This document shows, in pieces, positions 19,366-51,111 of a stretch of DNA of 64,000 nucleotides (position 1 is its first letter; every line of letters starts with the position of its first letter). Under the pieces are notes generated by a model, which saw nothing but the letters and a program-made list of their open reading frames with translations, was not told where the DNA came from and made no database searches. Source of the DNA: Candidatus Nanoarchaeia archaeon (GTDB lineage: Archaea > Nanobdellota > Nanobdellia > Woesearchaeales > GW2011-AR4); NCBI GenBank assembly GCA_035288925.1, contig DATDYS010000013.1:22168-86167 (forward strand), in the 5' to 3' direction. Both the position numbers and the translations under genes were made by a program.

Positions 19366-19377
19366 AAAAAGAGAAAA

Positions 19378-33166: not shown

Positions 33167-33220
33167 TCTGCATTCGGTTTGCCGCCATACGACTCAGTTT
33201 TCGTCCAACGGAACTTCAAA

Positions 33221-34288: not shown

Positions 34289-34369
34289 GAGGCGAAGCCG
34301 ACAGCCGCCATTGTGTGGCGTGCACTAATAAGAATAAACAATTAAAATCAATCAACGGAGGAAACTAAA

Positions 34370-35386
34370 ATGATAATCGTATTGAAAGAAGAAACATCAA
34401 AAGAGGAAATAAAAGATTTAATAGAGAAAATAAAAGAAACCGAGTTAAGGCCGGTTGAGTTCAATGGAGACGAAAGAACTGTAATCCATGTTCTGGGAAA
34501 CGTCACAGAGCAGACTGTAAACAGCTTCAGCTCCATTAAATGCGTTGAAAGGGTAATGAGAATTCTAAAGCCGTTCAAGCTGGCGTCTAAAGAGCATCAT
34601 CAGGGAACAACTGTTGTAAGAGTTGGAGATGTGAGTATAGGAAACGGAGAGATAACCGTAATAGCAGGCCCCTGCTCGATTGAATCAGAAGAGCAGATAA
34701 TGGAATCAGCAAACATAATGAAGAAATTGGGAATAAAAATCATGAGAGCTTCAGCATTCAAGCCAAGAACTTCGCCTTACGATTTCCAGGGAATGGGGAT
34801 AAAAGGATTAAAGCTGTTAAAGAAAGTCAAGGAAAAAACAGGAATATTAACAGAAACAGAAGTAATGGACGTAAGGGACGTTCCCATAGCTGCAGAATAT
34901 GTTGATGTCCTGAGAGTTGGAGCAAGAAACATGCAGAACTATGACTTGTTAAAGGAATTGGGAAAGATAAACAAGCCGGTCATATTAAAAAGGGGAATGT
35001 CAGCCACAATCAATGAATTCCTGATGGCAGCTGAATACGTACTATACCACGGCAACAAAGATGTGATATTATGCGAAAGGGGAATAAGGACTTTCGAGAC
35101 CGCTTACAGAAACACTTTGGATGTAGGCGCAGTTGCAGTATTAAAAAACATGACGCATTTGCCTGTGATAGTTGACCCAAGCCACGCAGCCGGAAAAAGA
35201 GAATTAATTGCACCGTTAAGCAAGGCAGCGATTGCAGCAGGGGCAGACGGGTTATTAATTGAATGCCATCCAAATCCAGAGAAAGCACTAAGCGATGGAG
35301 CGCAATCCATATATCCTGAGCAGTTAGCGCAATTGTTAAAAGATCTAAAGCCTTTATGCGAGGCTTTGGGAAGAAAATTGGGTTAA
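34370..35386 (+). CDS. 3-deoxy-7-phosphoheptulonate (DAHP) synthase, class I-beta, with N-terminal ferredoxin-like regulatory domain
   Basis: 338 aa. ~70-aa N-terminal extension, then the KDO8PS/DAHPS I-beta core (CSIESEEQ, KPRTSPY, DPSHA). Confidence 0.8.
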   Translation: MIIVLKEETSKEEIKDLIEKIKETELRPVEFNGDERTVIHVLGNVTEQTVNSFSSIKCVERVMRILKPFKLASKEHHQGTTVVRVGDVSIGNGEITVIAGPCSIESEEQIMESANIMKKLGIKIMRASAFKPRTSPYDFQGMGIKGLKLLKKVKEKTGILTETEVMDVRDVPIAAEYVDVLRVGARNMQNYDLLKELGKINKPVILKRGMSATINEFLMAAEYVLYHGNKDVILCERGIRTFETAYRNTLDVGAVAVLKNMTHLPVIVDPSHAAGKRELIAPLSKAAIAAGADGLLIECHPNPEKALSDGAQSIYPEQLAQLLKDLKPLCEALGRKLG

Positions 35387-35439
35387 AAACAATAAAAACT
35401 AAAAATAAAACAAGAAAAATAAGGGCTTTATGCCCTTCC

Positions 35440-35524
35440 AAGCTTGACGAGTTCCTCTTCAAGAGGGCTTTGAACTTTGTTCAAAACTTTTTTGTCAAGC
35501 TTTTTCTTGTGGAGAAAAAGGTTG
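35440..35524 (+). promoter_or_regulatory. conserved leader element, aroB copy (AAGCTTGACGAGTT ... GTCAAGCTTTTTCTTGTGGAGAAAAAGGTTGATGG)
   Basis: Same 5' AAGCTTGACGAGTT and 3' GTCAAGCTTTT-CTTTGT-AGAAAAGGTTG-TGG blocks as the trpB leader. Confidence 0.6.
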
Positions 35525-36652
35525 ATGGACACCATAAATGCGAAGATAAAATCAAAGGAATACGATTACCAGATTTTCGTAGGCAGCTCTATCCTAAACG
35601 AACTGGCAGATTTTATTAAAAAAAATCACAGCGGAAAGAAAGTTGCAGTCATAATGGGAGAGCACACCAGCAGGCTGCACAAGCCAAAGCTCGGCAAAAT
35701 ATTAAGCGACCTAAACCCATTGTTCATAACAGTCCCTTCAGGAGAATCTTCCAAATCCAGGGAAATGAAGGAAGAAATAGAGGACAATTTATTAGACCAT
35801 AAGTTCGGAAGGGATTCTTTAATCATAGCAATTGGCGGCGGAGTAATCGGAGATTTAGCCGGATTCGTGGCATCGACTTTCAACAGGGGGATTCCGGTAA
35901 TTCATGTGCCGACTACTTTATTGGCAATGGCAGACTCATCCATCGGCGGGAAAACGGCGATAAACACAAAGCACGGAAAGAATTTAATCGGAACTTTCCA
36001 CCAGCCCGATGCGGTATTTGTTGACATGGATTTTCTGGAAACGCTGCCGGATGACGAATTCAAAAGCGGATTGGGAGAAATCATAAAGCAGGGAATAATA
36101 CAAGACAAAGAACTGTTCAATTTTCTGGAAAAACACTGCAAGGAAATTCTTGAAAGAAAAAAAGACGTCCTGCAGCATATAATAAAGCGCTCAATTGAAT
36201 TAAAAAAGCAGGTTTTTGAATTGGACTCTCATGAAATGGGTTTGAGGCAGATTCTGAATTTCGGGCACACTTTCGGGCATGCTTTGGAAGCATATTACAA
36301 TTACAAGATAAAGCACGGATTTGCAGTAGCCATAGGAATGGTTGTAGAAGCAAGAATTTCAGCAATGACAAATAGTCTAAAGGAAAATGAGGAAGAAAGA
36401 ATCAGAAACATGATTAAAATATTCGGGTTTCCCATGTCTGATTCCGCCGGCACTTCAAAAATAATGGAACTTATGGTATCGGACAAGAAATCAAAAGGAA
36501 ACCGGCCAAGGTTTGTCTTGATTGACAGAATAGGAAAAGCAAAAGAAAAAGACGGCAGTTTCTCGTTTGAAGTTGACAGCAAGGTCGTAGAAGAAGCGAT
36601 AGAAAAAAGCAAAGATGAGTATGATTCAAAAACCAATCAGTTAATAAAATGA
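35525..36652 (+). CDS. aroB: 3-dehydroquinate synthase
   Basis: The ORF track starts at 35477. The likely start is MDTINAK at 35525, which falls inside the conserved leader block. Motifs GGGVIGDLAGF and the metal-binding His region. Confidence 0.85.
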   Translation: MDTINAKIKSKEYDYQIFVGSSILNELADFIKKNHSGKKVAVIMGEHTSRLHKPKLGKILSDLNPLFITVPSGESSKSREMKEEIEDNLLDHKFGRDSLIIAIGGGVIGDLAGFVASTFNRGIPVIHVPTTLLAMADSSIGGKTAINTKHGKNLIGTFHQPDAVFVDMDFLETLPDDEFKSGLGEIIKQGIIQDKELFNFLEKHCKEILERKKDVLQHIIKRSIELKKQVFELDSHEMGLRQILNFGHTFGHALEAYYNYKIKHGFAVAIGMVVEARISAMTNSLKENEEERIRNMIKIFGFPMSDSAGTSKIMELMVSDKKSKGNRPRFVLIDRIGKAKEKDGSFSFEVDSKVVEEAIEKSKDEYDSKTNQLIK

Positions 36653-39600
36653 TTGAGATAAATTCTGTTCAGAATCTTGATGCAGAGATTTCCATTCCTG
36701 GCAGCAAGTACATAGCAAACAGGTTGCTGATTATATGCGCTTTAGCCAACGGAACTTCAGTTCTGAAAAATGTGCCTGACAATGAGGATATTAATAATTC
36801 CATAAAAGCCCTGCAGCAATTCGGAATCGAGATTGAAAAAAATAAGGATAATCTGACAATAACCGGAACAGGAAAATTAAAAGCTCCAAATAACGAAATA
36901 AATGTAGGCGACTCAGGAACTTTATTAAGATTTATAACTGCATTTTCCGCTCTTGCAAAAGGGAACACCAAAATTACCGGAAGCAAAAGGATTCAGGAAA
37001 GGCCTATTTCTGATTTATTAAAAAGCTTGAGTGATTTGGGCATCAAATCCAATTCAAAAAATGGAAATGCGCCTTTGACAATTACCGGCGGGAATTTAGA
37101 TGGCGGAAAAACGAAAATCAAAGGAAGCATAAGCAGCCAGTTCATCAGCGCTTTGCTGTTAATCTCGCCTTTTGCAAAAAATGATGTAGAAATAACCATA
37201 GATGGGGAGCTGGTTTCTTCTGGATACGTTGATTTAACAATTAATTTGATGAAAGAATTCGGAGTAAATGTGGAAAGAAGCGGAAGCAGATTCACAGTCA
37301 AGGCAAATCAAAAATATAAATCAAGAAATTTTACAATTCCATCTGACTGGGCCTCTGCAAATTATTTTCTGGCAGCTGCAGCAATTGTTCCGGGAACTGT
37401 GACAATTAATAATCTGGATTTTAAGTCAAAAGTCCCTGAATCAGGATTTTACAGGGTATTGGAGAAGATGGGCTGCAAAGTTTTGCTGGATAATAATTCA
37501 ATAAAAATAACTGGAACTGATAAGTTAAAGCCAATTGATGCAGATATGGGTTCAATGCCAGATTCAGCGCAAACCTTAGCTGTTGCTGCACTATTTGCAG
37601 ACGGGACGACAAAAATAAGAAATATTGGAAATTTAAAATTCAAGGAATCAGACAGGATTAATGATACTGCAACTGAATTAAGGAAATTGGGCGCAGATGT
37701 CGAAGTAAAAAACGACGAATTAATAATTAATAATAATTTAAAAAAACTAAATTTCAAATCGGCAATCATTGATTCCCATAATGACCACCGGATGGCAATG
37801 AGCTTTGCAGTTGTCGGATTAAGAATTCCTGGAATTAAAATAGATAATCCGGAATGCGCAAACAAATCATTTCCGCAATTTTTCGCCAAATTAAATAAAA
37901 TAACAGCAAAGAAACAGAAAAATATTGTTCTGATTGGGTACAGGGGAGCCGGAAAGACGTCAACGGCAATGGAATTATCAAAATTGACAGGAATGAATAT
38001 CATTAGCACAGATGAAGAAATCTCAAAAAAAGTCGAAATGCCGATAGCGGATTTTATCGATAAAAACGGATGGGATGAGTTCAGGAAAGCTGAAAATGAA
38101 GTAATTGAAAGCCTCAAAGATGCTGATGGAGTGATAATTGACTGCGGCGGCGGAGTGGTTGAGAATGAGAATAATATCAAACTAATAAAACAAAATGGAG
38201 TGGTTTTCTGGCTTCGTGCGCAGGTCAGCGTGCTTGCTGACAGGATTAAAGACACTAAAAACAGGCCCTCAATAACCGGAAAAAAATCCTTTATTGACGA
38301 GATTGACGAAGTCTTGAGAAAAAGAATCCCCTTTTACAGGAAAGCCTGTGATTTTGAAATTGATACCAGCAACGAAAATCCGCTTCAAATAGCCCAATTG
38401 ATAATAAAATTGTATTCAATTCAACCTGTGAAAACAAGAATATGCGCCGTGATAACCGCAGACAATGTGAAAGACGCGCTTAATGATATGAAAAAAGCGG
38501 AATCCTCGGATTTGGTAGAATTAAGGCTGGATTTCATCAAGAATATTGATGAAAACAAAGTTAAGGAATTAATGAATAATAAAAAACAAAGAATAATTGC
38601 AACACTAAGGCCAGTTAAATTTGGTGGATTATTCAAAGGAGAAAAGAAAGGGAGATTTGCATTATTAAACAAAGCAATTGAGCTCGGAGCGGATTTTGTT
38701 GATGTTGAATTCGGCTCTGAAATTGCCGCGGATATTATTAAGAATAAAAAATCTTCAAAAATAATAATTTCGCACCATGACTTTAATGAAACTCCGTCAC
38801 TGGAAAAATTGGAATCAATCTACAGCCAAATAGATAAGTTGAATCCTGATTTTGTGAAGATTGTAACGGCTGCAAATTCAATCAATGATAATTTTATAAT
38901 TTTTGATTTACTTAAAGGAAAAAATAATTTAATATCATTTTGCATGGGGCAAAAAGGGGAGATTTCAAGGATTTTAGCGCCAAAGTTCGGCTCTGCGGTT
39001 ACATACTGCAGTATAAATCAAAACAAAGAATCCGCTCCCGGGCAGATTACTCAGGAAGAAATGAATAATCCGTATCATGTTGGTTTAATCAATCCGCAAA
39101 CTAATGTAATTGGAATAATTGGAGAATTCGCCGAGAATTCAATGTCAAAGTACATGCACAATCCTAATTTTGTGAAGAACAACGCCAATTTTGTCTATGT
39201 CCCTTTCAAAGTGTCTCCAAATGAATTAAGCGAGTTCATGGATAATTTCAAGAAATTTAATTTTAAGGGGGCTGCTGTTACGATTCCGCATAAAGAAACC
39301 ATAATCGGCCTGATACACAATGTAAATGAAACTGCGGACGAAATCGGGGCTGTAAATACGTTGGTTAGGGATGACGAAAAAATCATAGGCTATAATACTG
39401 ATTATTACGGCGCCGTTGAATCATTAAAGGAGAAATTAAATTCAAAAGGAAAGAAAGTCTTGGTTATTGGAGCAGGAGGGGCTGCAAGAGCCGTTATTTA
39501 CGGATTAAAGAAAGAAGGGGCAGAAATTATAATAATTAACCGAACAGGAGACAAGGCAAAAGAGCTTGCAGAAAATTTTAAGGTTAGCTTTGACAAATTT

Positions 39601-39921
39601 GAGAATATAAAATCATTGGCAAGGCAGGCTGATGTAATAATCAACACAACCAGTTTGGGGATGACGCCATTTGAAAACGGATGCGCCCTGGAAGAAGATG
39701 AATTGCCGGAAGGAAAGATTGTCATGGATGTTGTCTACAAGCCGGTTATCACAAAACTTATTAAGCTTGCGCAAAAAAAGAAATGCAGGACAATCACTGG
39801 CGACAGAATGCTTATATACCAGGCAGTAAGGCAATTTGAATTATGGACGAAAATAAATCCTGGATTTGAAAATATGGAAAAAGAACTGGCAAAGGAAATT
39901 AATAAAAATAAAAAACAATAA
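36649..39921 (+). CDS. tetrafunctional shikimate-pathway fusion: EPSP synthase, shikimate kinase (AroK-type), 3-dehydroquinate dehydratase (type I), shikimate dehydrogenase. AROM-like domain order
   Basis: 1090 aa. The EPSPS N-terminal ~420 aa carry LGNSGT-like GDSGTLLRF. P-loop kinase IGYRGAGKTS. Type I DHQase segment ICAVITAD...LRLDF. SDH segment with GAAVTIPHK and GAGGAARAVIYGL. Overlaps the aroB stop by 4 nt. Confidence 0.8.
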   Translation: MIEINSVQNLDAEISIPGSKYIANRLLIICALANGTSVLKNVPDNEDINNSIKALQQFGIEIEKNKDNLTITGTGKLKAPNNEINVGDSGTLLRFITAFSALAKGNTKITGSKRIQERPISDLLKSLSDLGIKSNSKNGNAPLTITGGNLDGGKTKIKGSISSQFISALLLISPFAKNDVEITIDGELVSSGYVDLTINLMKEFGVNVERSGSRFTVKANQKYKSRNFTIPSDWASANYFLAAAAIVPGTVTINNLDFKSKVPESGFYRVLEKMGCKVLLDNNSIKITGTDKLKPIDADMGSMPDSAQTLAVAALFADGTTKIRNIGNLKFKESDRINDTATELRKLGADVEVKNDELIINNNLKKLNFKSAIIDSHNDHRMAMSFAVVGLRIPGIKIDNPECANKSFPQFFAKLNKITAKKQKNIVLIGYRGAGKTSTAMELSKLTGMNIISTDEEISKKVEMPIADFIDKNGWDEFRKAENEVIESLKDADGVIIDCGGGVVENENNIKLIKQNGVVFWLRAQVSVLADRIKDTKNRPSITGKKSFIDEIDEVLRKRIPFYRKACDFEIDTSNENPLQIAQLIIKLYSIQPVKTRICAVITADNVKDALNDMKKAESSDLVELRLDFIKNIDENKVKELMNNKKQRIIATLRPVKFGGLFKGEKKGRFALLNKAIELGADFVDVEFGSEIAADIIKNKKSSKIIISHHDFNETPSLEKLESIYSQIDKLNPDFVKIVTAANSINDNFIIFDLLKGKNNLISFCMGQKGEISRILAPKFGSAVTYCSINQNKESAPGQITQEEMNNPYHVGLINPQTNVIGIIGEFAENSMSKYMHNPNFVKNNANFVYVPFKVSPNELSEFMDNFKKFNFKGAAVTIPHKETIIGLIHNVNETADEIGAVNTLVRDDEKIIGYNTDYYGAVESLKEKLNSKGKKVLVIGAGGAARAVIYGLKKEGAEIIIINRTGDKAKELAENFKVSFDKFENIKSLARQADVIINTTSLGMTPFENGCALEEDELPEGKIVMDVVYKPVITKLIKLAQKKKCRTITGDRMLIYQAVRQFELWTKINPGFENMEKELAKEINKNKKQ

Positions 39922-40009
39922 TAAAAATACATTACGAAACTAACTACAATACGACTAAAAATTCAATACAATACTAATAATCATCAACGAAAAATCAAAA
40001 ACTTAAAAG

Positions 40010-41113
40010 GTGAATAAAATGCCGGGAAACTCGTTTGGAGAATCATTCAAAATAACAAACTGGGGCGAGAGCCACGGAAAGGCGATTGGAGTGGTCATAG
40101 ATGGGTGTCCGGCACTATTAGAACTGAATGAAGGTTACATACAAAAATTTCTTGACAGAAGAGCGCCAGGCCAAAGCGATATCACAACTCAAAGGCAGGA
40201 GCCTGACAAGGTGGAAATACTTTCAGGACTGTTCAACGGCAGGACAACAGGAACTCCAATCAGCATGATAATCTCCAATAAAGATTACAAAAAAGAAGAC
40301 TACAAGGAGATTGCAGCAGCCTTCAGGCCCAGCCATGCGGACTTTACGTACCAAAAAAAGTTTGGAATCAGGGACATGTCCGGCGGAGGAAGAAGCTCGG
40401 CAAGATTGACCGCAGGAAATGTCGCAGCAGGGGCAATTGCATACAAGATACTGAATGAAAGGTTTGGCGTTGAAGTGGTTGCTTATGTAAAGCAGATTAA
40501 AGATGTACAAGCTGAAATTGATTCTGAAAAAGTTTCAAAAAAAGACGTTGACTCAAACATTGTCAGGTGTCCGGACAAAACTGCGGCAAAGCAGATGATT
40601 GAATTAATTGAAAATGCAAAAGACAAGGGAGATTCCGTAGGCGGAATAATAGAATGCATCATAAGAAACGCCCCAATCGGACTGGGAGAGCCGATTTTTG
40701 ACAAGCTGGAAGCGGATTTGGCAAAGGCAATGCTCTGCATCAATGCAACAAAGGGCTTTGAAATAGGCTCCGGGTTTGAAGGGACTAAATTATTCGGCAG
40801 CCAGCATAATGATGCCTTCGTGATGAAAAACGGAAAAGTTGAAACAAAAACAAACAACTCAGGCGGGGTCCAGGGAGGAATTTCAAACGGAATGCCAATC
40901 ATCTTTAGAGTCGCATTCAAGCCCACATCTACAATTCAAAAAGAGCAGGATACTATTGACATCAAAGGAAAGTCAGTAAAATTAGCCGCTAAGGGGCGCC
41001 ATGACCCATGCGTTTTGCCCAGGGCAGTCCCGATTGTCGAGGCAATGGCTTCTCTTGTCCTGTGCGACCATTACTTAAGGCAAAGGGCGCAGAACGGTGA
41101 TAAATTTGATTGA
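40010..41113 (+). CDS. aroC: chorismate synthase
   Basis: 367 aa. GESHG, GRSSAR motifs. Confidence 0.9.
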
Positions 41114-42116
41114 TGAGCTAAGAAAGGCAATTGATGGGCTGGATGAAAAAATATTAAATCTGCTTTCCAAAAGGAAAAATTTAGCTAAGGAAGTTGCGAA
41201 ACTAAAGGAAAATCTGGACTTGCCTGTTTTTGACAAAAAAAGGGAAGAGGAAATATTAAAAAATATTTCCGGCAGGGCAAAGCAGTTGGGACTTGATGTG
41301 AATTCTGTTTCAGATGTATTTAACGCAATCTTCCGGGGCTCGAGAAGCGAGCAGCAAAAGCAGATGGGCAAAGTTGAATGCAGCGTCAAAAAAATAGGAC
41401 TAATCGGCTTTGGAAGATTCGGAAAATTGATAGTAAGGCATCTTTCAGGCGACTTTGATTTTTATGTTTATGACAGATTGGCAAACAAGAATGAAATAAA
41501 AAATAATAATGCAGTCCCATCATCACTAAAGGAATTATGCCGGCTGGATATTATAATCTTAGCTGTCCCAATTTCAGAGATTAAATCTGTTTTGAATGAC
41601 ATCAAAAATTTATTAAAAAAAGATGCATTGGTTGTGGATGTCTGCTCGGTGAAAGAATACCCTATTAAATTAATGAAAAATATTTTGCCAAAAAGCGTGC
41701 AGATTCTTGGGACTCATTCAATGTTCGGGCCCGATACCGCCTACGACTCATTGGAGGAAAAAAAAATAGTATTGTGCAAAGTCAGGATTCAAAATAATCT
41801 TTATCTGCAAATCAAAAGATTTCTTGAAAGTAAGCAGCTTGCAGTTATCGAGGCAACTGCGCAGCAGCATGATGCGGAAATGGCAAAATCGCTTGTGCTG
41901 ACTCATTTTATCGGAAGAGCACTTATGGATATAGGAGTTTCTGATATGGAAATTGATACAAAAAGTTACAGGGATTTGCTCAGAATTTTAGATACTGTAA
42001 AAAATGACACATGGCAGCTTTTTGAGGATATGAATAAATTCAACAAATATTCAAAAGGAGTGAGAAAGGATTTAATCAAGTCGTTAAGCAACGTGGAGAA
42101 AAAATTATCAAAATGA
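41097..42116 (+). CDS. tyrA: bifunctional chorismate mutase (AroQ) / prephenate dehydrogenase
   Basis: N-terminal AroQ helix [20 protein letters not shown], then the NAD-binding [10 protein letters not shown]. Confidence 0.75.
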
Positions 42117-42931
42117 AAATAGCATACCAGGGAATCAAGGGGGCTTACAGCGAGGCAGCTGTCTACAAGCATTTTGGAGACAAAGCAGAATCTGCCGGGT
42201 TTGATACTTTTGAGGAAGTGTTTGAAGCAGTCAAATCAGGCAAAGTGGATTATGGAGTTGTGCCTGTTGACAACACAATAGCTGGAACTGTTGCTGCAAA
42301 CTGCGATTTGCTTTTAAAGCACGATGTTTATGTGATTGCGGAGATTTATTTGGATATCCATCATAATCTGCTTTCGCATAAAGGAACTTCATTGAAAGAT
42401 TTGAAAATTATTTATTCGCATCCCCACGCGCTGGAGCAGTGCAGGGAATTCATTAAAAAGCATAAATTAAAGTCAGTGCCGGAATATGACACTGCGGGAG
42501 CTGCAAAAATAATAAAGGAAAGAAACAAGAAAGACGAGGCTGCCATAGCTTCCGAATTCTGTGCCAAAATTTATGGTTTGGGTATAATTGAAAAAAATAT
42601 TTCAACTGCAAAGAACAACATTACAAAATTTTTTGTTTTTGTCAACAGCGATAAAATTCCCAAAAATATCAAGCAGGAAAAAACAAGCATTGTTTTCAGG
42701 ACAAAGCATTACCCGGGAGCATTGATCAACTGCCTTCAGAGGCTGGCAAAGCATGATATTAACCTGACCAAGCTTGAATCAAGGCCGGTTCCTGAAAATC
42801 CATGGGAGTATTCTTTCTATGCGGACTTTGAAGGCGGAGTCGAGGACGAAAAGGTAAAGCTTGCATTAAGCGAGATGGAAGCTTCTTGTGAATTCTTAAA
42901 GGTGCTTGGAAGCTATCCGAAAGGAAAATGA
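42113..42931 (+). CDS. pheA: prephenate dehydratase with C-terminal ACT domain
   Basis: 272 aa. PDT domain then an ACT domain with ESRP. Confidence 0.85.
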   Translation: MKIAYQGIKGAYSEAAVYKHFGDKAESAGFDTFEEVFEAVKSGKVDYGVVPVDNTIAGTVAANCDLLLKHDVYVIAEIYLDIHHNLLSHKGTSLKDLKIIYSHPHALEQCREFIKKHKLKSVPEYDTAGAAKIIKERNKKDEAAIASEFCAKIYGLGIIEKNISTAKNNITKFFVFVNSDKIPKNIKQEKTSIVFRTKHYPGALINCLQRLAKHDINLTKLESRPVPENPWEYSFYADFEGGVEDEKVKLALSEMEASCEFLKVLGSYPKGK

Positions 42932-43262: not shown

Positions 43263-43970
43263 CTAAAATCCCCTGTTATTCCCCCATAAATGAATGTGCA
43301 GCCTATCGCTGAAATTAAAACCATGCTCTTTGCATAGTTCAATGAGCCATCTGCTTCTTTCTCTTATAGTTTCACTGTTATCCCCTTCAGGCATCAAGTA
43401 AACTTTGCCGGCTGGAATTGCAAGCTGGGTTCGCAGTTCAGAGACATCATCTAAATCCTCTGGAGATGCTACCACAAATTTTAATTGGTAATCATGCCTT
43501 GCCATAAATTTAGATAGTGCTTCAAGGTTTCTCATTAACCTTCTGTGCCTTGCCTCATACCTAGATCCTAAAGGAATACTGTTTTCCATTTTTGGTGATA
43601 TGCTCATATAAATTTGAGTCGGCAATTCCTTAAATATACTTCCATTGGTCTCCACTGTAACCTGATAGCCTGATTCTGTAAGCATTCTGGCAAGCTCAGG
43701 AAGATCCTTTTGTAAAAATGGTTCACCGCCTGTAATTACAACATGCCTTGCCGGGGTTTTTGCTGCCTGCCCCACTAATTCTTCCAATGGCACAAAACTG
43801 CCCTTAGGCTCCCACGATGTGTAGGGCGTGTCGCATTTTGTAACTTCCCCAGTTCTTTGGTCTCTCCACTCGCATCTTAAATTGCAGCCGGAACTTCTGA
43901 TAAAAAAAGATGGCACGCCTATATGTTTTCCTTCGCCCTGCACCGAGTAAAAAGTTTCTGCAACGTACAT
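43263..43970 (-). CDS. queE: 7-carboxy-7-deazaguanine synthase (radical SAM)
   Basis: 235 aa. FIRSSGCNLRCEW...C cluster, TGGEP. Confidence 0.85.
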   Translation of the reverse strand: MYVAETFYSVQGEGKHIGVPSFFIRSSGCNLRCEWRDQRTGEVTKCDTPYTSWEPKGSFVPLEELVGQAAKTPARHVVITGGEPFLQKDLPELARMLTESGYQVTVETNGSIFKELPTQIYMSISPKMENSIPLGSRYEARHRRLMRNLEALSKFMARHDYQLKFVVASPEDLDDVSELRTQLAIPAGKVYLMPEGDNSETIRERSRWLIELCKEHGFNFSDRLHIHLWGNNRGF

Positions 43971-44086: not shown

Positions 44087-45043
44087 ATGCAGTATGAAAA
44101 ATTAGTTGAAATATCTGACAGAGTGCTCGTTTCGCCTAGGGACATAGAGCAAATGCTCTTTATCTTAAGAGGAGGCCCTACAAAACAGATTGAGATTCAA
44201 AGGAGACTGGGTTTTCCAAAATCGGCTATGCAAATTCTGCCGGTTGAGCTTAGCGATTTAATAACCAGGGAAGGGGACCGGTTCAGCTTAAGACAGAACG
44301 CTCAAGATGAAGTCGATGAGCTGCAAAGCAGAAGGGCGGGCTTTGATGCGCAGGTTGAGGCAAGATTAAGCTATGCAGTTGAAGAATTAAAATCGGTAGA
44401 GCAATCGAGGGACAGGTCTTACAGAAATTTTGACCAGTTCAGGGCTGTTCCGGAATCAACTGTTGCTAAAGTAGGCCTGATATATCAGCGCGGTGATTTG
44501 GAGTCAAGAGATATAATCCTTATTGGTGACAATGATTTAGCTGCGGTTGCGGCAGGATTTACAGGCGTTCCAAAAAAAATAACTGTCCTAGACATAGACA
44601 AAAAAATTCTTGATTTATTGGAGGAATTAAACAGGCAGCACTCTCTAAATATAGAAACTGTATGCTACAACGCGAAAAGCCCATTTCCGAACAGCTTAAA
44701 ATCACAATATTCTGTTGCAGTCACAGACCCGCCTTATACGCCTGAAGGGATCTCGCTGTTTGTGTCAAGATGCATTGGGGCATTGGGGAGAAAAAATGGA
44801 GTTATTTACCTTTCATATGGGTATAGCCCTAGAGCTGCTGAAAGGGCATTGCCAATTCAGGACGCTCTGACTAAAATGGGGCTGGTGATTGAGGAAGTAA
44901 AGCCGGGCTTCACAAAATATTATGCTGCACAGTCAATCGGATCATCATCTGCTCTTTACGTGTGTAGGATGACGCCAAGGTCTAAACCAATTATCAGCGG
45001 AAAGTTTACCGGTGACATTTATACAAAAACAAGGCCTAAGTGA
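44087..45043 (+). CDS. DUF43 / BpsA-like aminopropyl- or methyltransferase-fold protein with N-terminal winged helix
   Basis: 318 aa. GDNDL in place of GxGxG; TDPPYT motif. Family assignment is from recall of DUF43/BpsA motifs only. Confidence 0.45.
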   Translation: MQYEKLVEISDRVLVSPRDIEQMLFILRGGPTKQIEIQRRLGFPKSAMQILPVELSDLITREGDRFSLRQNAQDEVDELQSRRAGFDAQVEARLSYAVEELKSVEQSRDRSYRNFDQFRAVPESTVAKVGLIYQRGDLESRDIILIGDNDLAAVAAGFTGVPKKITVLDIDKKILDLLEELNRQHSLNIETVCYNAKSPFPNSLKSQYSVAVTDPPYTPEGISLFVSRCIGALGRKNGVIYLSYGYSPRAAERALPIQDALTKMGLVIEEVKPGFTKYYAAQSIGSSSALYVCRMTPRSKPIISGKFTGDIYTKTRPK

Positions 45044-46759
45044 ATGTTTATGCAGGAAGAATTTATAATCGGAATAAATGGATGGCAAGTCAGAGGCCAT
45101 GATGCTTCAGCAGCATTGATTAAATGCAAAACTGATGGCTTAGTGGAAATAGTTGCGGCTGCGGAGGAAGAACGATTTTTGGGTGTTAAGCATGCATATG
45201 ACACTTTGCCACTACACGCTGTCCAATTCTGCTTAGACGCAGCAGGAATTCAGCCGGAGGATTTAAGTTCTATTGCAGTTCCTTTTGAATATCCAAAAAT
45301 ATATGAAACACGGGGCTTAAGGTTTGATGTCAGTAATTCAAAATTAAGGAAAATCCTGTTTCCAAATCTTACACAAGCCAATAAGCCAGAAATATTTTAC
45401 GTGAATCACCACCTTGCCCATGCAGTCAGTGCATTTGCCCCATCTATGTCAAACTCCTCTCTTGTAATGGTTATAGACGGGCAAGGGGAATTTGAATCCT
45501 CAACGATATGGAGTGTAGGTAACAGAGGAAAACAAATTCAAAAAATTGCATCTTCAGATATTGCATCTTCACTAGGGTATTTTTATGAAGCCCTGACAGA
45601 ATTTATAGGATTTCAGCCGAACGAACCGGGAAAAACAATGGGCCTTGCCCCATATGGAAATCCGGAGAGATATAAAGGGAAGATTAATAATTTATTTGTT
45701 GTTAATGGAGGGGTAATCACGGTGCAGGGCCCGGAATTAAAATTTGGTTTGGCTGTCGGAGATTATCTTCCAATAGATGAGCAGCATCAGGTAAGATTGT
45801 TCTGGTTAAAAAAATTTTCTGAGATAACTGGAATGAACCCTAATGACAACTCCAGGAAGTATTCATTTAGAAATTTCCCTAAAGGCTATGCAGATTTGGC
45901 TGCATCTGGACAAAGAGTTCTTGAAGAAGTTGTAGTTACATTAGCGGCTCAGGCACAGAATTTAACACAATCAAAAAATGCCGGCATTGCAGGCGGTGTT
46001 GGATTAAATTGTGTAGCAAATGGGCTAATCGCTGAATCAGGGCTTTTTGACAGAATATATGTTCAGCCCGCATCAAACGATGCCGGCACATCCTTGGGGG
46101 CGGCATTAGAGGTAGCCAGACAAAAAGGTTATGGTATTCACAATGTGCCTATGGCCCCTTACCTGGGCTTAAGTGTTAGTAATCAGGATATACTAAAAAT
46201 TTTGACAAGATCCAATTATAATTTTATTATTTGTGATGACGCCTACAGATTTATCGCTGACCTAGTAGCAAATGGTAAGGTGGTTGGATTATTCCAGGGA
46301 AGAGCAGAATTTGGCCCTAGGGCATTAGGCAACAGGTCATTTATTGCAGATGCCAGGCAGGCAAGCATGCAGGATTATATTAATCAGCATGTAAAGGGCA
46401 GAGAAGAAGGCAGGCCGCTTGCACCTGCGGTTCTGGATTCAGATTCTGAGTACTTATTTGGCCAAACTGTAAATGCGCCGCATATGACAGTGGCATATCA
46501 AATCCAAGAGGGATTGGACGCAGTCACGCATGTTGACGGCACGACAAGGCCGCAGATAGTAACTGCTGCATCCAATAGCTCGTTTTACCGTCAGCTGCAG
46601 GCGGTTCAGAATAAGATAGGGATTGGTGCAGTAATCAACACTTCATTAAATTTGAATGGCCCGATAGTAAATACGCCTCAGCAGGCACTGAGATTATTGG
46701 AAACAACGGGAGCTGAGGCAATTGTATTCAACAACAGATATTTGGTGAGGCGAAAATGA
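45044..46759 (+). CDS. carbamoyltransferase (NodU/CmcH/TobZ family)
   Basis: 571 aa. HDASAAL, HHLAHAVSAF. ASKHA/Kae1-like N domain with a YrdC-like C-terminal region. Confidence 0.75.
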   Translation: MFMQEEFIIGINGWQVRGHDASAALIKCKTDGLVEIVAAAEEERFLGVKHAYDTLPLHAVQFCLDAAGIQPEDLSSIAVPFEYPKIYETRGLRFDVSNSKLRKILFPNLTQANKPEIFYVNHHLAHAVSAFAPSMSNSSLVMVIDGQGEFESSTIWSVGNRGKQIQKIASSDIASSLGYFYEALTEFIGFQPNEPGKTMGLAPYGNPERYKGKINNLFVVNGGVITVQGPELKFGLAVGDYLPIDEQHQVRLFWLKKFSEITGMNPNDNSRKYSFRNFPKGYADLAASGQRVLEEVVVTLAAQAQNLTQSKNAGIAGGVGLNCVANGLIAESGLFDRIYVQPASNDAGTSLGAALEVARQKGYGIHNVPMAPYLGLSVSNQDILKILTRSNYNFIICDDAYRFIADLVANGKVVGLFQGRAEFGPRALGNRSFIADARQASMQDYINQHVKGREEGRPLAPAVLDSDSEYLFGQTVNAPHMTVAYQIQEGLDAVTHVDGTTRPQIVTAASNSSFYRQLQAVQNKIGIGAVINTSLNLNGPIVNTPQQALRLLETTGAEAIVFNNRYLVRRK

Positions 46760-47640
46760 GCGACGAAACAAGAAATTCAGTAGTCAGATTAAATCAGCAT
46801 TTTTTAAGGGATAGTTCTGCTCTCGAGCAGATTGTTTCATTATCGGAAATCGAGCCGCAGGAAACAGTATTGGAAATAGGGCCCGGGCAAGGTTCTTTGA
46901 CTGGCAGAATAGCTGAGCGTGCTAAAAAAGTAGTAGCTATTGAAGCAGACGCAAGATTAAAAGCCGATTTGGATGCACTTCAAGCCCAGTATCCGAATGT
47001 CAGCGTGGTATATGGCGATGCAATTGAAATGAGATTTCCAAAGTTTGATAGGATGGTAGCTAACATACCGTTTAACATCACAGAGCCATTGATTACAAAA
47101 TTAATGGGGGAGAAATTTGTTGGCGCTTATTTACTGGTGGGGGAGAGTTTTGCAGATAATTGCACGACCATGGGAGGCTACACGACCAGGCTGGGATTAT
47201 TGACCAGGGCTTATTTTAAGACGGAGCAGCTGCTTCAAGTTCCAAAAGAAAGCTTTGATCCAATTCCGTCAACTGACGGTGTTTTAATATCACTCAGTCC
47301 AGTTAAAAAAAGCGATCTTCGGGAAGATTTTCCGCTTTACATGCTGCACTGCATGTGGGATCAAAGAACCAAACCATTGAAAGATGCTCTTTCATCTGCA
47401 TTGTACCAATATGCCTCAGGTAAAATTACGGGGGAGATAGACGTAAGCAGGGTGATAAGAGATTTTGAAAGGGATCACTCCGGAATTATAAATAGAAGAG
47501 TTGATGCGATAGGAAACACTGAATTTTTAGATTTATATCACGGATTGTCCGGAATGAAACTAAATAAATTATTTGGAAGGCACAAGCCAAGAGGCGGTGC
47601 GCAAAACTGGAGAAAAACTTATGCAGAACACCTTAGATAA
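46756..47640 (+). CDS. rRNA adenine N6-dimethyltransferase family protein (KsgA/Dim1/Erm-like)
   Basis: 294 aa. QHFLRD, VLEIGPGQGSLT, NIPFNITEP. Overlaps both neighbours by 4 nt. Confidence 0.7.
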   Translation: MSDETRNSVVRLNQHFLRDSSALEQIVSLSEIEPQETVLEIGPGQGSLTGRIAERAKKVVAIEADARLKADLDALQAQYPNVSVVYGDAIEMRFPKFDRMVANIPFNITEPLITKLMGEKFVGAYLLVGESFADNCTTMGGYTTRLGLLTRAYFKTEQLLQVPKESFDPIPSTDGVLISLSPVKKSDLREDFPLYMLHCMWDQRTKPLKDALSSALYQYASGKITGEIDVSRVIRDFERDHSGIINRRVDAIGNTEFLDLYHGLSGMKLNKLFGRHKPRGGAQNWRKTYAEHLR

Positions 47641-48298
47641 AATGGCCAACATAACTGTTTTGGCTCCGCACATAGACGATGAGATTATCGGAGCAGGAGG
47701 AAGCATAGCAAAGCATATTGATTTGGGCAACGCAGTTAGGGTTATCTATGTGCATTCAGGCGATACCCATGATGAAGTTCAAGTAAGAGAAAGCGAAGCT
47801 GCCAGAGTGGCAGATTTTCTTGGAATAAAGGATTCACATTTCTTAAGGCAGAGGCCAACATCAATCTCCAATAAGTCAGTTGAAGAAATAGTCGGACTAT
47901 TAAGAAAACAATCAACGGATTTTCTGTATGCCCCCCATCTGGATGATGGAGATACTGAGCACGTTGCAGTTTCTCAGCTCGCCCACAGGCTTTTGTGGCT
48001 GACAAACGGAGAATATTTTAAAGAACAGAATGGGCAAGGACGCTTGAAAGGATTGTTTTTGTATGAAGTTCACAGGCCAATTAGCCAAGTACATTATTTG
48101 GAAGACATTACAAAATATGAAAATAAAAAAATTGCTGCAATCAGATTATTTGAATCACAAGTAGCGAGGGTTAGATATGATTTAAGCGCTGTTCACCTCA
48201 ATAGGTACAGGGGCATAACTACCGAAGTTGCGCCTTCTGTCGAATCTTTCCAAATTGCAGGCGCAAGAAATTTTTTTGAACTTTTCAGGAGCAGATAA
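47573..48298 (+). CDS. LmbE/PIG-L family N-acetylglucosaminyl deacetylase
   Basis: LAPHIDDEIIGAGGSIAKH; the HxDD(E) zinc motif typical of PIG-L. Confidence 0.7.
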   Translation: MEGTSQEAVRKTGEKLMQNTLDKMANITVLAPHIDDEIIGAGGSIAKHIDLGNAVRVIYVHSGDTHDEVQVRESEAARVADFLGIKDSHFLRQRPTSISNKSVEEIVGLLRKQSTDFLYAPHLDDGDTEHVAVSQLAHRLLWLTNGEYFKEQNGQGRLKGLFLYEVHRPISQVHYLEDITKYENKKIAAIRLFESQVARVRYDLSAVHLNRYRGITTEVAPSVESFQIAGARNFFELFRSR

Positions 48299-48300
48299 TA

Positions 48301-49098
48301 ATGGACTTGTCTATTGTAATACCAGTTCACGATGATATAAGGGTTGAAAGATGCGTGAATAGCATTGACGAAAATGTTGAAGTTGTGCTTGCACTGAACA
48401 GGCCAACTGAAGAAGTTAAAGGAATTGCCAAAAAATTGGGAGTTAAATCAGTTAATGTTCCGGAACAAAATCTGGGCATGTGTTATAATTATGGCATGGA
48501 CGCTTCCACCTCTGAAAATGTTCTTTTTATGGACAGTGATTGTGTTTTTGCTCCGCGCACAATCGAAAGAGTTTATAGTGCAAAAACATCGCATCCGGAT
48601 GCGCTGATAAGAGGAAATGTAGTATATCTCACAGATTCTATTCAGTCCAGAATAACAAAAGCCGGGCGCGATGTGACAACAATTAATGTCCCTTATGCAT
48701 TTATCCCACTGCTTTTATTGGACAAAGGTGTTTTTTCCAGGATAAATGACGGGCGCAGATTTGCAGAAGATGTGGGCTGGACCGCGGATTATGAATTTGA
48801 ACTCCGAAGATCAAAAGCAGGAATACCTTTAGTACAGGTTCCAGAAGCCAGGATATTCCATGACCCCATGACTATTGCCTCCGATTTAAGGAGCGCTTTC
48901 AAATATGGCACTGGAAAAAGGATAAGGCATGAAAGGACAGGCGAACACACCAATTTCCTTGAAGTGTTGAAAGAGCCAATACTCAGAGGTTTTAGGGAAG
49001 GCGGATTTGTTGCTGGAGCTTATTTGATTGTATGGAAATCGGCTTTATATTCTGGCTACTATTCACAAAAATATGGATTAAACCAAACTAAAAGGTGA
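48301..49098 (+). CDS. glycosyltransferase family 2
   Basis: SIVIPVHDD and DSDC (DxD) motifs. GT-A fold. Confidence 0.7.
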   Translation: MDLSIVIPVHDDIRVERCVNSIDENVEVVLALNRPTEEVKGIAKKLGVKSVNVPEQNLGMCYNYGMDASTSENVLFMDSDCVFAPRTIERVYSAKTSHPDALIRGNVVYLTDSIQSRITKAGRDVTTINVPYAFIPLLLLDKGVFSRINDGRRFAEDVGWTADYEFELRRSKAGIPLVQVPEARIFHDPMTIASDLRSAFKYGTGKRIRHERTGEHTNFLEVLKEPILRGFREGGFVAGAYLIVWKSALYSGYYSQKYGLNQTKR

Positions 49099-49103: not shown

Positions 49104-50372
49104 ATGAATCCAAGAAATATGGAAGAATTACGGAACTTAACTTTAAAGGATGCTGTTGTTGCAGTCACGGCTGATGATTCAGCAATCGATAACACATTAA
49201 TTAAGCATGCGAGAGCCACTGGAAGAAAATCTTTTTTGCTGTCTTTCAGGCAAAACTCAAATGTCAGAAGCGGTTCTATCATAGAAGACAGTGTAGCATA
49301 TCGCCAGTTTTTTACGCTTGATGATATTATAAACAGGGTAAGCTCAGGAACTTCTTCAGAACCAGAGGAAGTTAAAAGCACATTTGGATATTTTCTTCTT
49401 CTTTATTCATTAGGCGTAGCCAGAGCAGAATCCATGGCAGCTTCCAATTTAGTGCTGCCGGATAATATATTTCCAGCAGGTGTAAACAATTTAGGGCATT
49501 TTTACAATGTTTTGCAGAATCTGACTAATGAAGGAACAAGCAGAGACACAAACATTGCCGTAAAACTTCTGCTTACAGAAAAGCCAAAGTTGCATTACGG
49601 AAAAAGATACTTGTCTCCTGACAAAGTTGCCGCATTGATTTCCGGCGGAACAGACAGCGTGGGCGTGTCATTTATAGAACACAGATTGGGGAAAACTGTT
49701 TTGCCGGTGCAGGTTATATATGACCAAGCGGCCAGGCATCAGGAATTGTGGTGCGTTGACAGAGTTGCTGAAGATTTGGGAATAAAAGCTGATGATTTAT
49801 GCATAGTTTATCTTCCGATGCTGAAAAATTTTGGCGCTTCCGGCCTTTTGCGGGATGATGTGCAAATAAATGCGCAGAACACAAAAATAGAATATGTTCC
49901 GTTTAGAAATACTGTACTTCTGGCTATTGCAATAATGCGGGCTGAATTAGTTGGCGCGAAGTATGTTGCCATAGGCGCAAATCACGATGATACTTTAGCA
50001 CCCGATGGGACTCCACAATATGTAAAAGCAATAAATGAAGTCATTCAGGCAGTTGATGGGCAGGTTCCGTCAGTAATAGCCCCTCTTCTGGGATTTGGAG
50101 GAAAGCCGGAAATCGTAAGAACCGGGCTTGATTTGGGAGTTAATTTTTCCCATACATGGTCATGCCACGCATATGTTCCTCCTCCGGAAGTTGGGCTTGA
50201 TGCAAAATCCTGCGGCACCTGCGGAAATTGTGCAACAAGATATTCTGCTTTCGAGATGCTTGGGCTCAAAGACCCTGTAGGATACAAGGAAATTCCAAAA
50301 CTGAGAACCAAGTGGGCCGGGCCGCAGGGAAATTATGAATCTCTGAGAAGTGCCCTTGGAATCAGGAAATAA
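49104..50372 (+). CDS. QueC-like PP-loop ATPase (7-cyano-7-deazaguanine synthase family) with a ~190-aa N-terminal extension
   Basis: 422 aa. SGGTDS PP-loop, VPFRN, C-terminal SCHAY...CGTCGNCATR zinc motif as in QueC. The N-terminal 190 aa have no recognisable motif. Confidence 0.65.
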   Translation: MNPRNMEELRNLTLKDAVVAVTADDSAIDNTLIKHARATGRKSFLLSFRQNSNVRSGSIIEDSVAYRQFFTLDDIINRVSSGTSSEPEEVKSTFGYFLLLYSLGVARAESMAASNLVLPDNIFPAGVNNLGHFYNVLQNLTNEGTSRDTNIAVKLLLTEKPKLHYGKRYLSPDKVAALISGGTDSVGVSFIEHRLGKTVLPVQVIYDQAARHQELWCVDRVAEDLGIKADDLCIVYLPMLKNFGASGLLRDDVQINAQNTKIEYVPFRNTVLLAIAIMRAELVGAKYVAIGANHDDTLAPDGTPQYVKAINEVIQAVDGQVPSVIAPLLGFGGKPEIVRTGLDLGVNFSHTWSCHAYVPPPEVGLDAKSCGTCGNCATRYSAFEMLGLKDPVGYKEIPKLRTKWAGPQGNYESLRSALGIRK

Positions 50373-51111
50373 CTTTTGATTTTTTCATTATTAAAAGATA
50401 CCTGCAGGAGCCGGTCTTAATTCCAAGCTTATAACTGAATTTCTTTTTTATTATTTTCAAAAAAGGCATATCTTTTTTTAAATTGAAGCCCGGGATTATT
50501 GGCGTATTTTCCAAGAGAAAAATCAAATCAGGCAATTTATAATATTCAGTTGAGTGATAATGATATTTTACTGATACATTAAAACCGGCATCTTTAGCTT
50601 TTTTGATGTACTCATCTATTAATTTTCCGTGCTTTTTGCAGTAAGACTGGCCCCTTCCAAATATGTCTTTAATGTTTTGCTTATCCCTTTCCCCTACTTG
50701 TTGCGTTATCAGCAGCCCGCCTTCTTTCATTACTCTGTAAGCCTCTTTGAAATTTATTGGAGCGTGCCTGCTTGCAATAATGTCAAAAGTTTTATTTCCA
50801 TAAGGAACCTTATTGTTGTCGCCAATTTTGAATTCTGCATTCTTTAGCTTAACATTTTGTTTTGCTTTTGCTATCATAGATTTCGAGTTATCTATCCCGC
50901 AAACTCTCTTGCATTTTTTTGCAAAGGGAATAATTTTCTCTCCGCTTCCGGTTCCCAAGTCAAGCAAAATGGAATTTTTAGTAATATATTTTCCAACAAC
51001 TGCTGTAAAATCCCACTTCTGATTCTTAACAGCCACCCCCTTATCTAATTTTGAGAAATCCCATCCGATTCTTTTTCCCACTGAATCATAAAATTCCTTT
51101 TCGCGCGTCAT
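50362..51111 (-). CDS. class I SAM-dependent methyltransferase
   Basis: ILLDLGTGSGE motif I. Confidence 0.75.
   Translation of the reverse strand: MTREKEFYDSVGKRIGWDFSKLDKGVAVKNQKWDFTAVVGKYITKNSILLDLGTGSGEKIIPFAKKCKRVCGIDNSKSMIAKAKQNVKLKNAEFKIGDNNKVPYGNKTFDIIASRHAPINFKEAYRVMKEGGLLITQQVGERDKQNIKDIFGRGQSYCKKHGKLIDEYIKKAKDAGFNVSVKYHYHSTEYYKLPDLIFLLENTPIIPGFNLKKDMPFLKIIKKKFSYKLGIKTGSCRYLLIMKKSKVIS

Follow-up and report, generated by a model that had tools for sequence, protein, structure and literature searches.

The window analysed here is a stretch of 64,000 nucleotides from a contig of a Candidatus Nanoarchaeia archaeon (DATDYS010000013.1), and the gene under study is a QueC-like open reading frame (ORF) at its positions 49104-50372. 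It is the last gene of an operon in which the genes of a PIG-L family de-N-acetylase, a family-2 glycosyltransferase (GT2) and the QueC-like protein follow each other in this order and are tightly packed. The product of 422 amino acids is identical to HLC61680.1 from the metagenome-assembled genome (MAG) of this DPANN archaeon and carries at NCBI the plain label '7-cyano-7-deazaguanine synthase'. A first-pass annotation of the DNA had read the ORF as a QueC-like enzyme with an uncharacterised N-terminal domain, and the ORF proved to be real, with exactly these coordinates and a match to Pfam PF06508 (QueC) over residues 177-386 (E 2.1e-37). What is new here is a QueC-family paralogue with a pseudo-enzyme duplicate, which marks an uncharacterised deazapurine cluster.

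As the Pfam domain starts only at residue 177, a gene-calling artefact had to be considered, in which a small upstream ORF and a normal QueC are read as one, and an internal start at a methionine near residue 190 had already been named as a possibility. The frame contains neither a stop codon nor a methionine between residues 112 and 237, including the region around residues 170-190, and a start at the TTG of residue 178 would truncate the fold within its first strand. The Shine-Dalgarno-like motif AAAGGTGA ends 5 nt ahead of the start codon (ATG at 49104) and shares nucleotides with the TGA stop codon of the preceding GT2 gene, and therefore the start of the QueC-like gene is well placed in a tightly packed operon. 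Furthermore, 13 homologues of archaea and bacteria, with identities down to 32%, share the frame over its full length from residue 1 onwards, and AlphaFold2, based on 14 sequences, returned a confident two-domain model of the whole protein (predicted local distance difference test, pLDDT, 85.9; predicted template modelling score, pTM, 0.90). The extension is a translated domain and no start-site artefact. A misplaced start codon was ruled out by the Shine-Dalgarno-like motif in combination with the full-length conservation, and the fusion of two neighbouring frames by the gene caller is nearly excluded, with a minute residual chance.

The N-terminal domain had been described as 190 amino acids long and as matching nothing recognisable. 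It is real and conserved, with a length of about 172 amino acids, and a Pfam scan of residues 1-176 indeed gave zero matches, but a profile comparison finds the QueC fold itself. Using hhalign, the N-domain aligned to the QueC core of the same family over 119 colinear columns (E 2.4e-5, score 39.5), whereas 150 column shuffles scored 13.7 +/- 2.8 with a maximum of 24.8. A broader N-domain alignment compared with 66 single-domain QueCs reached a probability of 97.8% (E 6.5e-13, score 88.1, 148-159 colinear columns), and 99 of 100 shuffles scored 19.6 or less; one hhalign shuffle with a score of 131.7 over 5 columns was treated as a numerical artefact. At the level of individual residues, A106, E109 and G144 are invariant in the 13-member N-domain alignment, and the residues invariant in the query and the 13 full-length relatives include A106, R107, E109, P119, L137 and E143-G-T145. 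The A106-R-A-E109 helix motif aligns to the A-x-A-E that follows VPxRN in ordinary QueC, and E143-G-T145 to the conserved x-G-T turn. Likewise, the parallel between 'VVAVTADDSAID ... GVARAESMAASNLVLP ... FYNVLQNLTNEGTSRDTNIAVKLL' of the N-domain and 'VAALISGGTDSVGV ... IMRAELVGAKYVAIG ... YVKAINEVIQ...VIAPLL' of the QueC core can be followed by eye. In the AlphaFold2 model the domain is an alpha/beta sandwich, with four parallel strands, a hairpin and four helices.

The catalytic features of the fold have disappeared from this domain. The position of the SGGxDS PP-loop is occupied by TADDSA, with a vestigial 'LSGD/VSGN' retained there in bacterial members, and the N-domain cannot bind ATP in the manner of QueC because the PP-loop, VPxRN, YPDC and the zinc cysteines are all gone. 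A search of 1.84 billion representative proteins with the N-domain profile gave nine matches only, of which eight have the same architecture or are pieces of such proteins; the weakest (P0022, 226 amino acids, E 2.7e-05) is a single-domain QueC that was matched via its QueC core. A word-indexed search with the broad N-domain alignment found two fragments only, and a hidden Markov model of the N-domain retrieved nothing meaningful, and not QatC, from the PDB sequences. As judged from the profile comparisons, the N-domain represents a QueC fold that was duplicated within the protein and has degenerated. The 'new fusion partner' of the first-pass annotation thus gives way to a decayed copy of QueC, and an N-terminal extension on a QueC core was already known from QatC (PMC13279940).

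The C-terminal core was said to carry every QueC hallmark, which is correct for the three motifs that had been named, i.e., the PP-loop (SGGTDS, 180-185), VPFRN (265-269) and the zinc motif C370-G-T-C373-G-N-C376-x-x-R379. Together with C354 all four zinc cysteines are present and invariant, the conserved Lys of QueC is retained as K334, and the Asp of YPDC as well as all ATP- and zinc-binding elements of QueC are kept. Nevertheless, the claim does not hold for the remaining signature, as YPDC has become APDG (299-302), the first zinc spacer is C(x)15C compared with C(x)8C in canonical QueC, and His355 follows the first zinc Cys (C354) at the position of a second tyrosine. The canonical signature, as defined by a survey from 2026 and by mutagenesis in Escherichia coli, comprises SGGxDS, YxQxHxxE, VPxRN, YPDC, K165, the zinc motif and Y189; R99 of VPxRN is essential, the variants Y131A and Y189A are inactive and form no preQ0, and Y131F is partly active (PMC13082051). 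With the E. coli numbering carried over via alignments to 3BL5 and 2PG3, Y131 corresponds to the lost Tyr of YPDC and Y189 to His355. Judged by these alignments, the core lacks both tyrosines that canonical QueC needs for preQ0. The YxQxHxxE region (Y206-D-Q-A-A-R-H-Q-E214) is one residue longer and its His is variable, and a 9-residue YGQRTxxRE variant is also found in canonical-looking YPDC relatives. In line with these changes, the protein scores 97.5 bits with the NCBIfam QueC equivalog TIGR00364, for which the cut-off is 150.3, while the other two-domain members reach 87-111, Tyr-lost single-domain proteins 124-167 and YPDC-type proteins 149-194 bits. The 36-residue tail makes the C-terminus longer than that of single-domain QueC and is found in most two-domain members.

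A search of 5.8 billion proteins returned 16 relatives of the QueC-like protein, 13 of which aligned in full length from residue 1. The same gene block occurs in a Woesearchaeota MAG, with QueC-like proteins that are 58% identical and with QueD and QueE adjoining, and in a Nanoarchaeota MAG, with 44% identical proteins and QueD, QueE, FolE2 and an APH-type kinase adjoining. Only one QueC homologue, the two-domain one, was seen in these clusters. To relate motifs to context, 84 QueC homologues were extracted from the collected loci (numbered with L; 80 loci came from a scan of 185,579 species genomes) and the window. The Tyr of YPDC is lost in 24 of them, which read [ACST]PD[NGC] and mostly WSCH, and a GT2 and/or carbamoyltransferase gene lies within 10 kb in 18 of these 24; the 60 homologues that have kept it (YPD[CT], one YWDC, mostly WSCY) show such a context in no case (18/24 vs 0/60, Fisher p = 1.4e-13). 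All nine two-domain proteins fall into a single clade when a neighbour-joining tree is built from the core, and this clade spans DPANN archaea and Firmicutes; the extension is conserved but rare. The Tyr-lacking single-domain proteins form another clade from bacteria of the Candidate Phyla Radiation (CPR) and from one MAG each of the Aenigmatarchaeota, actinobacteria and gammaproteobacteria. A single-domain subfamily with [ACST]PDN and WSCH (L014-L027, L033, L075) usually adjoins GT2 and carbamoyltransferase genes, and its members are likely annotated as ordinary QueC.

The Shapirobacteria locus of this group combines a YhhQ-type transporter, the QueC-like protein, a carbamoyltransferase, GT2, SHMT, a kinase, a methyltransferase of the KsgA/Erm family (RrnaAD), a BpsA_C-type protein and an AdoMet decarboxylase. 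The presence of RrnaAD at this locus indicates that this gene travels with the cluster across domains; it is found in the deazapurine cluster of the window, L001, L003, L012, L015, L016, L020 and L023, with a different gene order in the CPR versions. The AdoMet decarboxylase directly after the BpsA_C gene (L020 16860-18147) supports a real aminopropyl-transfer step and suggests that the cluster product is aminopropylated. From the conserved neighbourhoods we strongly infer that the two-domain protein is the signature enzyme of a conserved 7-deazaguanine cluster of the secondary-metabolite type and not a housekeeping preQ0 synthase, with FolE/QueD/QueE, the two-domain enzyme, GT2, carbamoyltransferase and often PIG-L as the equally strongly supported cluster core, and with a sister form of one domain only in CPR bacteria. 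The product is probably a sugar-decorated 7-deazaguanine compound.

Two observations from the same collection may be added. A 464-aa QueC-QueE fusion of the TPDN type (P0016, L007 2324-3718) lies in a bacterial-looking cluster with SHMT, QueD, FolE, GT2, PALP, PIG-L, an ABC transporter and OCD. In addition, the contigs of L010 and L012 (85% and 46% identical proteins) are binned in 'uncultured Methanosarcinales archaeon' MAGs, so that they are either mis-binned or the cluster has been transferred.

The two-domain architecture is not described in the 2026 survey of the QueC family, which left three small archaeal clusters unanalysed (PMC13082051). A preprint from 2026 on genome mining for bacterial deazapurines contains neither carbamoyltransferase, PIG-L or AMP-binding contexts nor the genera of the two-domain carriers, our literature searches found no description of this cluster, and the plasmid collection contained zero two-domain homologues.

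Within the bacteria, two-domain orthologues were found in Brevibacillus laterosporus, Bacillus subtilis (18 contigs), B. cereus, Paenibacillus wenxiniae, Candidatus Enterococcus ikei and in Lachnospiraceae and Roseburia MAGs. B. subtilis possesses a canonical QueC in addition (structure 3BL5), and the cluster copy, here the orthologue P0044, would therefore be an extra paralogue in this species. An AraC regulator is encoded upstream of the cluster in the B. subtilis assembly GCA_003710285.1. The bacterial clusters contain QueD, QueE, FolE, carbamoyltransferase, GT2, an ABC exporter and sometimes PIG-L, and they further hold an SbnA/SbnB-like PALP/OCD pair together with one or two carrier proteins. 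In four bacterial loci the QueC-like gene is immediately preceded by that of an AMP-binding adenylation enzyme; the two genes overlap in L005, L013 and L089 and are separated by a gap of 47 nt in L008. Two orthologues are even fused to a C-terminal PP-binding (phosphopantetheine-attachment) domain, which was detected with 28-30 bits at a Pfam gathering threshold of 20.8, so that N-domain, QueC and PP-binding domain form one polypeptide in P0050 (L090 10001-11374, Candidatus Enterococcus ikei) and in the metagenomic relative P0052. In Brevibacillus laterosporus CP025545.1 the GTP cyclohydrolase I gene (L008 7585-7861) is apparently broken into pieces of 72 and 24 amino acids and PIG-L is absent; the cluster may be decaying in that strain.

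Table 1. Positions of the QueC-like gene, its domains and motifs, and the adjoining genes in the window.
Feature	Position	Strand	Basis or remark
QueE-like radical SAM enzyme (7-carboxy-7-deazaguanine synthase family)	43263..43970	-	divergent from operon
BpsA_C-type protein, putative aminopropyltransferase	44087..45043	+	first gene of operon
NodU/CmcH-type carbamoyltransferase	45044..46759	+	
KsgA/Erm-family (RrnaAD) methyltransferase	46756..47640	+	
PIG-L family de-N-acetylase	47573..48298	+	
Family-2 glycosyltransferase (GT2)	48301..49098	+	directly upstream of QueC-like gene
Shine-Dalgarno-like motif AAAGGTGA	49091..49098	+	read from sequence
Tandem pseudo-QueC/QueC protein, whole ORF	49104..50372	+	422 aa plus stop
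N-terminal domain, residues 1-172, degenerate QueC-like Rossmann (PP-loop-fold)	49104..49619	+	profile comparison
A106-R-A-E109 helix motif of N-domain	49419..49430	+	
E143-G-T145 motif of N-domain	49530..49538	+	
QueC-type PP-loop ATP-pyrophosphatase and zinc domain, residues 173-386	49620..50261	+	Pfam PF06508
PP-loop S180-G-G-T-D-S185	49641..49658	+	
VPxRN motif V265-P-F-R-N269	49896..49910	+	intact, invariant in family
A299-P-D-G302 replacing Y-P-D-C, E. coli-essential Tyr Y131 lost	49998..50009	+	alignment to 3BL5, 2PG3
Zinc site C354 ... C370-x-x-C373-x-x-C376-x-x-R379	50163..50240	+	
C-terminal tail, residues 387-422 (D390-P, Y394, P398, R401, W404, G406)	50262..50369	+	
SAM-dependent methyltransferase	50362..51111	-	convergent with QueC-like gene

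With regard to the operon and its surroundings (Table 1), the PIG-L gene probably starts at the ATG at 47642, 1 nt past the stop codon of the preceding gene. The QueC-like gene shares the last 11 bp of its 3' end (50362-50372) with the 3' end of the convergent methyltransferase gene, and a convergent methyltransferase directly downstream is also present in L001 (no overlap) and L003 (overlap). The BpsA_C-type protein is related to branched-polyamine aminopropyltransferases (5XNC, E 5.6e-29). The RrnaAD methyltransferase stays below both relevant cut-offs (148 bits vs 171 for KsgA, 139 bits vs 212 for Erm), its nearest structures are archaeal/eukaryotic KsgA/Dim1 proteins, and it could be a self-resistance enzyme, an N-methylase of a small molecule or the housekeeping KsgA. 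No QueD or FolE2 was detected in the window by tblastn; in this archaeon they lie elsewhere in the genome.

Several further features were noted in the remaining window. In most descriptions, DPANN archaea are said to be unable to make amino acids. Here, a complete tryptophan operon is followed by a bacterial-type shikimate/chorismate pathway, a chorismate mutase-prephenate dehydrogenase and a prephenate dehydratase in one 15-kb run (27658-42931). This run includes a polypeptide of 1090 amino acids that unites EPSP synthase, shikimate kinase (SKI type), type I dehydroquinase and shikimate dehydrogenase (36649-39921). The start of its gene lies within the end of the gene for a DHQ synthase of the bacterial type, with a DAHP synthase containing an FXD domain further upstream; in a DPANN archaeon one would not expect such a tetrafunctional, AROM-like enzyme of the bacterial type. 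Rfam located tRNA genes at 20942-21026 and 22078-22201 with 51.9 bits each, both unreported by ARAGORN, and the length of 124 nt of the second one suggests an intron. The minus strand carries a MoxR-VWA block (1007-8050) of a MoxR AAA ATPase, DUF7502 and two large VWA/BatA-type proteins, and ORFs of 175-477 amino acids without Pfam match at E <= 1e-5 are located at 15913-16587, 17218-18651, 18802-19905 and 26846-27553.

The proposal of the first-pass annotation that the enzyme uses a substrate other than free 7-carboxy-7-deazaguanine (CDG), or a different nitrogen donor, is now better grounded, as the equivalents of Y131 and Y189 are replaced (PMC13082051) and the score remains below the equivalog cut-off. 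The genomic context points in the same direction, with a position directly after GT2 and PIG-L that is conserved together with carbamoyltransferase and CDG genes, and with bacterial orthologues for which coupling or fusion to adenylation and carrier-protein modules is seen. Which chemistry is carried out has to be weighed against the known members of the family. Canonical QueC (PF06508 cluster 1, TIGR00364; 3BL5, 2PG3) has the same fold, with about 25% identity over residues 173-386, and the two have the PP-loop (SGGxDS), VPxRN, the conserved Lys, a zinc site of four cysteines and a QueE gene next door in common. In contrast, the window protein is twice as long due to the dead duplicated N-domain and the C-terminal tail, has APDG for YPDC, Cys-His for Cys-Tyr, a zinc spacer of 15 instead of 8 residues and a sub-cut-off score, and its gene is embedded in a glycosyltransferase/carbamoyltransferase cluster. 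An ordinary housekeeping QueC, which makes preQ0 for tRNA archaeosine and has an inert or merely stabilising extension and chance neighbours in a compact genome, would fit the NCBI annotation, the adjoining QueE, the need of archaea for preQ0 to form archaeosine (PMC13082051) and the fact that no second QueC is visible within the window. We nevertheless consider it improbable: the score with the QueC equivalog is too low (97.5 bits, cut-off 150.3), two residues essential for preQ0 formation are gone, and a seven-gene neighbourhood is kept across lineages at a protein identity of only 44-58%. Moreover, an orthologue exists in B. subtilis, a species with its own canonical QueC (3BL5), and neither TGT nor ArcS is encoded in the window or in the clusters listed. 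A DpdA gene is likewise absent from them. GAT-QueC, the crenarchaeal archaeosine synthase, is likewise an archaeal family member with an N-terminal extension, which in this case is a class-II glutamine amidotransferase (GATase) with a catalytic Cys2. As the window protein has Asn at residue 2 and no GATase match in Pfam or NCBIfam, it is not a GAT-QueC, as had been stated before, and its extension is QueC-like. A defence enzyme that attaches deazaguanine to the N-terminus of a partner protein would be in line with the top structural matches, since Foldseek ranks Cap9 of type IV CBASS (9NTO) first for the core (E 1.2e-8, TMt 0.80) and QatC 9Y02_B first for the full-length model (E 3.1e-8, template modelling score TM 0.50, 449 columns). 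QatC of the qatABCD system (9Y01, 9Y02) is also the only solved QueC-family protein of the same plan, with N-extension, core and C-extension; the N-terminal alpha/beta extension has four parallel strands flanked by helices, and the canonical nucleobase-recognising Tyr/Asp are replaced (PMC13279940). The order of strands and helices in our model fits this plan, but the resemblance is one of plan only, as the identity is 13% and the VPxRN and YxQ of the window protein have no counterpart in QatC. With its cut-off of 280 bits, the QatC model NF041925 gives no match to the window protein and 18-29 bits for its bacterial relatives, and PADLOC made no defence-system assignment beyond a generic QueC match. 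Cap9 is an amide ligase with Cys-Glu after the first zinc Cys, so that the second Tyr is missing there too (PMC13082051). It differs in being minimal (about 185 amino acids, compared with 422), in keeping Y-x-D-C, in acting on a protein N-terminus and in having a CD-NTase neighbour. Neither a CD-NTase nor qatA (ATPase), qatB or qatD (TatD) was found among the neighbours of the window gene, which are tailoring enzymes for small molecules, and a defence role is nearly excluded, although slightly less remote than an artefact of gene calling.

A more serious alternative is offered by the closest characterised cluster, that of huimycin from Kutzneria albida (BGC0002354), which holds FolE, QueD, QueE, QueC, a SAM methyltransferase and a glycosyltransferase and has a carbamoyltransferase as its neighbour. 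Its product is a hexosamine N-glycoside of 7-deazaguanine, in detail GlcNAc N-linked to O-methyl-preQ0. By analogy, the window protein might be a dedicated nitrile synthase of a huimycin/dapiramicin-like pathway that converts CDG via the amide to the nitrile with ammonia as donor and acts on CDG or on glycosylated/O-methylated CDG; the lost tyrosines would widen the pocket for a bulkier substrate, and the dead N-domain would merely be a structural partner in a pseudo-dimer. The same gene classes are present in the window cluster, with the PIG-L deacetylase in addition, the Asp of YPDC is still there, as is all that QueC uses to bind ATP and zinc, and the protein is the sole QueC homologue seen in these clusters. 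The huimycin glycosyltransferase belongs to another family (PF13439 instead of GT2), PIG-L, BpsA_C and RrnaAD are missing from that cluster, and the neighbouring carbamoyltransferase is dispensable for huimycin. Against the nitrile synthase, the simple synthesis of a free-base nitrile would leave the bacterial carrier-protein fusion and the translational coupling to an adenylation enzyme unexplained. HuiB is 72% identical to ToyM, which we take to be a preQ0 synthase, and therefore huimycin needs no such variant. Finally, both positions at which alanine abolishes preQ0 formation in E. coli (Y131A, Y189A) are substituted here (PMC13082051). Taken together, we regard the nitrile synthase as a rather unlikely explanation, though one to be reckoned with.

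The reading that we tentatively prefer, without granting it an even chance, is an ATP-dependent ligase that joins CDG to an amine within a huimycin-like deazapurine glycoside pathway. The C-terminal domain would adenylate the C7 carboxylate of CDG, or of glycosylated/methylated CDG, and the acyl-adenylate would react with an amine instead of ammonia, so that a 7-carboxamide conjugate and no nitrile results, as in the chemistry of RoyL and Cap9. In bacteria the amine would probably be an amino acid tethered to a carrier protein, e.g., 2,3-diaminopropionate, and in this archaeon probably an amine made by the cluster, either the hexosamine after de-N-acetylation or an amine that has been aminopropylated. 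Both the dead N-domain and the tail at the C-terminus may serve as a built-in pseudo-subunit or docking surface that presents this larger co-substrate, as the extensions of QatC would, and the end product would be a cationic, carbamoylated and methylated deazaguanine glycoside. We favour amine capture because RoyL, Cap9 and probably QatC, i.e., the characterised divergent QueCs that still activate CDG, work in this way, because adenylation and carrier-protein modules are coupled with, or fused to, the orthologues in bacteria, because the archaeal operon would itself make amines via PIG-L and BpsA_C, and because QatC, whose extensions would hold the amine-delivering protein, is the best structural analogue of the full-length model. 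According to the respective preprint, RoyL of the pathway to roseomycin A and the peptidyl-deazapurines adenylates CDG and couples a non-ammonia amine (bioRxiv 10.64898/2026.04.15.718813). RoyL as described there and the window protein are both QueC homologues of CDG-producing clusters, with QueE in the window and QueD plus FolE2/FolE in the orthologous clusters. From the residue numbers given there, with the PP-loop and motif residues between about 9 and 139, RoyL appears to be single-domain, and it is set in Streptomyces clusters with ATP-grasp and TauD; the likeness to RoyL is one of description.

A number of points weigh against this interpretation. The archaeal clusters contain no carrier protein or adenylation enzyme, and for this reason the bacterial clue may not transfer to archaea. 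PIG-L is absent from the two-domain clusters L008, L012, L021, L024 and L089, and huimycin, with similar gene classes, uses a nitrile (preQ0) base. The loss of both tyrosines could equally mean a modified CDG substrate in combination with ordinary ammonia chemistry. The N-domain model alone does not establish a similarity to the N-extension of QatC; a Foldseek search of the PDB with this domain failed to retrieve QatC and gave only weak, generic Rossmann/HUP matches (E >= 1e-3), among them pantothenate synthetase with TM 0.45-0.49 and short-chain dehydrogenases. Furthermore, the tblastn queries used to score the genomic context were the proteins of the window itself, and the tree was built by neighbour joining from 213 columns. 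The PIG-L product as a universal amine co-substrate was dropped from the proposal, since PIG-L is missing from several two-domain clusters.

The ligase proposal can be extended to the pathway as a whole, and this wider picture is clearly speculative and, taken in its entirety, unlikely. The two-domain proteins would be a hitherto overlooked class of pseudo-dimeric deazapurine amide synthetases that join CDG to a tethered or cluster-made amine, the product would be a cationic, carbamoylated deazaguanine amino-glycoside following an aminoglycoside/streptothricin-like logic, the pathway would have moved between DPANN archaea, CPR bacteria and Bacillales, and the KsgA/Erm-type methyltransferase together with the kinase would confer self-resistance to a ribosome-targeting product.

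QueC-family enzymes have recently been shown to exceed the synthesis of preQ0, with the modification of proteins by Cap9 and QatC and the amide-linked natural products of RoyL as examples. The clade described here adds a further architecture to this family, namely a dead internal duplicate combined with a remodelled core. It also provides a simple sequence rule, in which the loss of the YPDC Tyr and a Cys-His after the first zinc Cys separate the cluster-associated paralogues from true QueC; at present both share the one annotation '7-cyano-7-deazaguanine synthase'. As the cluster is present in cultured strains of B. subtilis, B. cereus, Paenibacillus, Brevibacillus and Enterococcus, its chemistry is directly testable. 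DPANN archaea and CPR bacteria are usually thought to be poor in specialised metabolism, and the occurrence of the same cluster in both should be of interest to microbial ecologists. If the wider picture is true, this pathway would be among the first of the antibiotic type to be assigned to DPANN archaea, episymbionts with tiny genomes.

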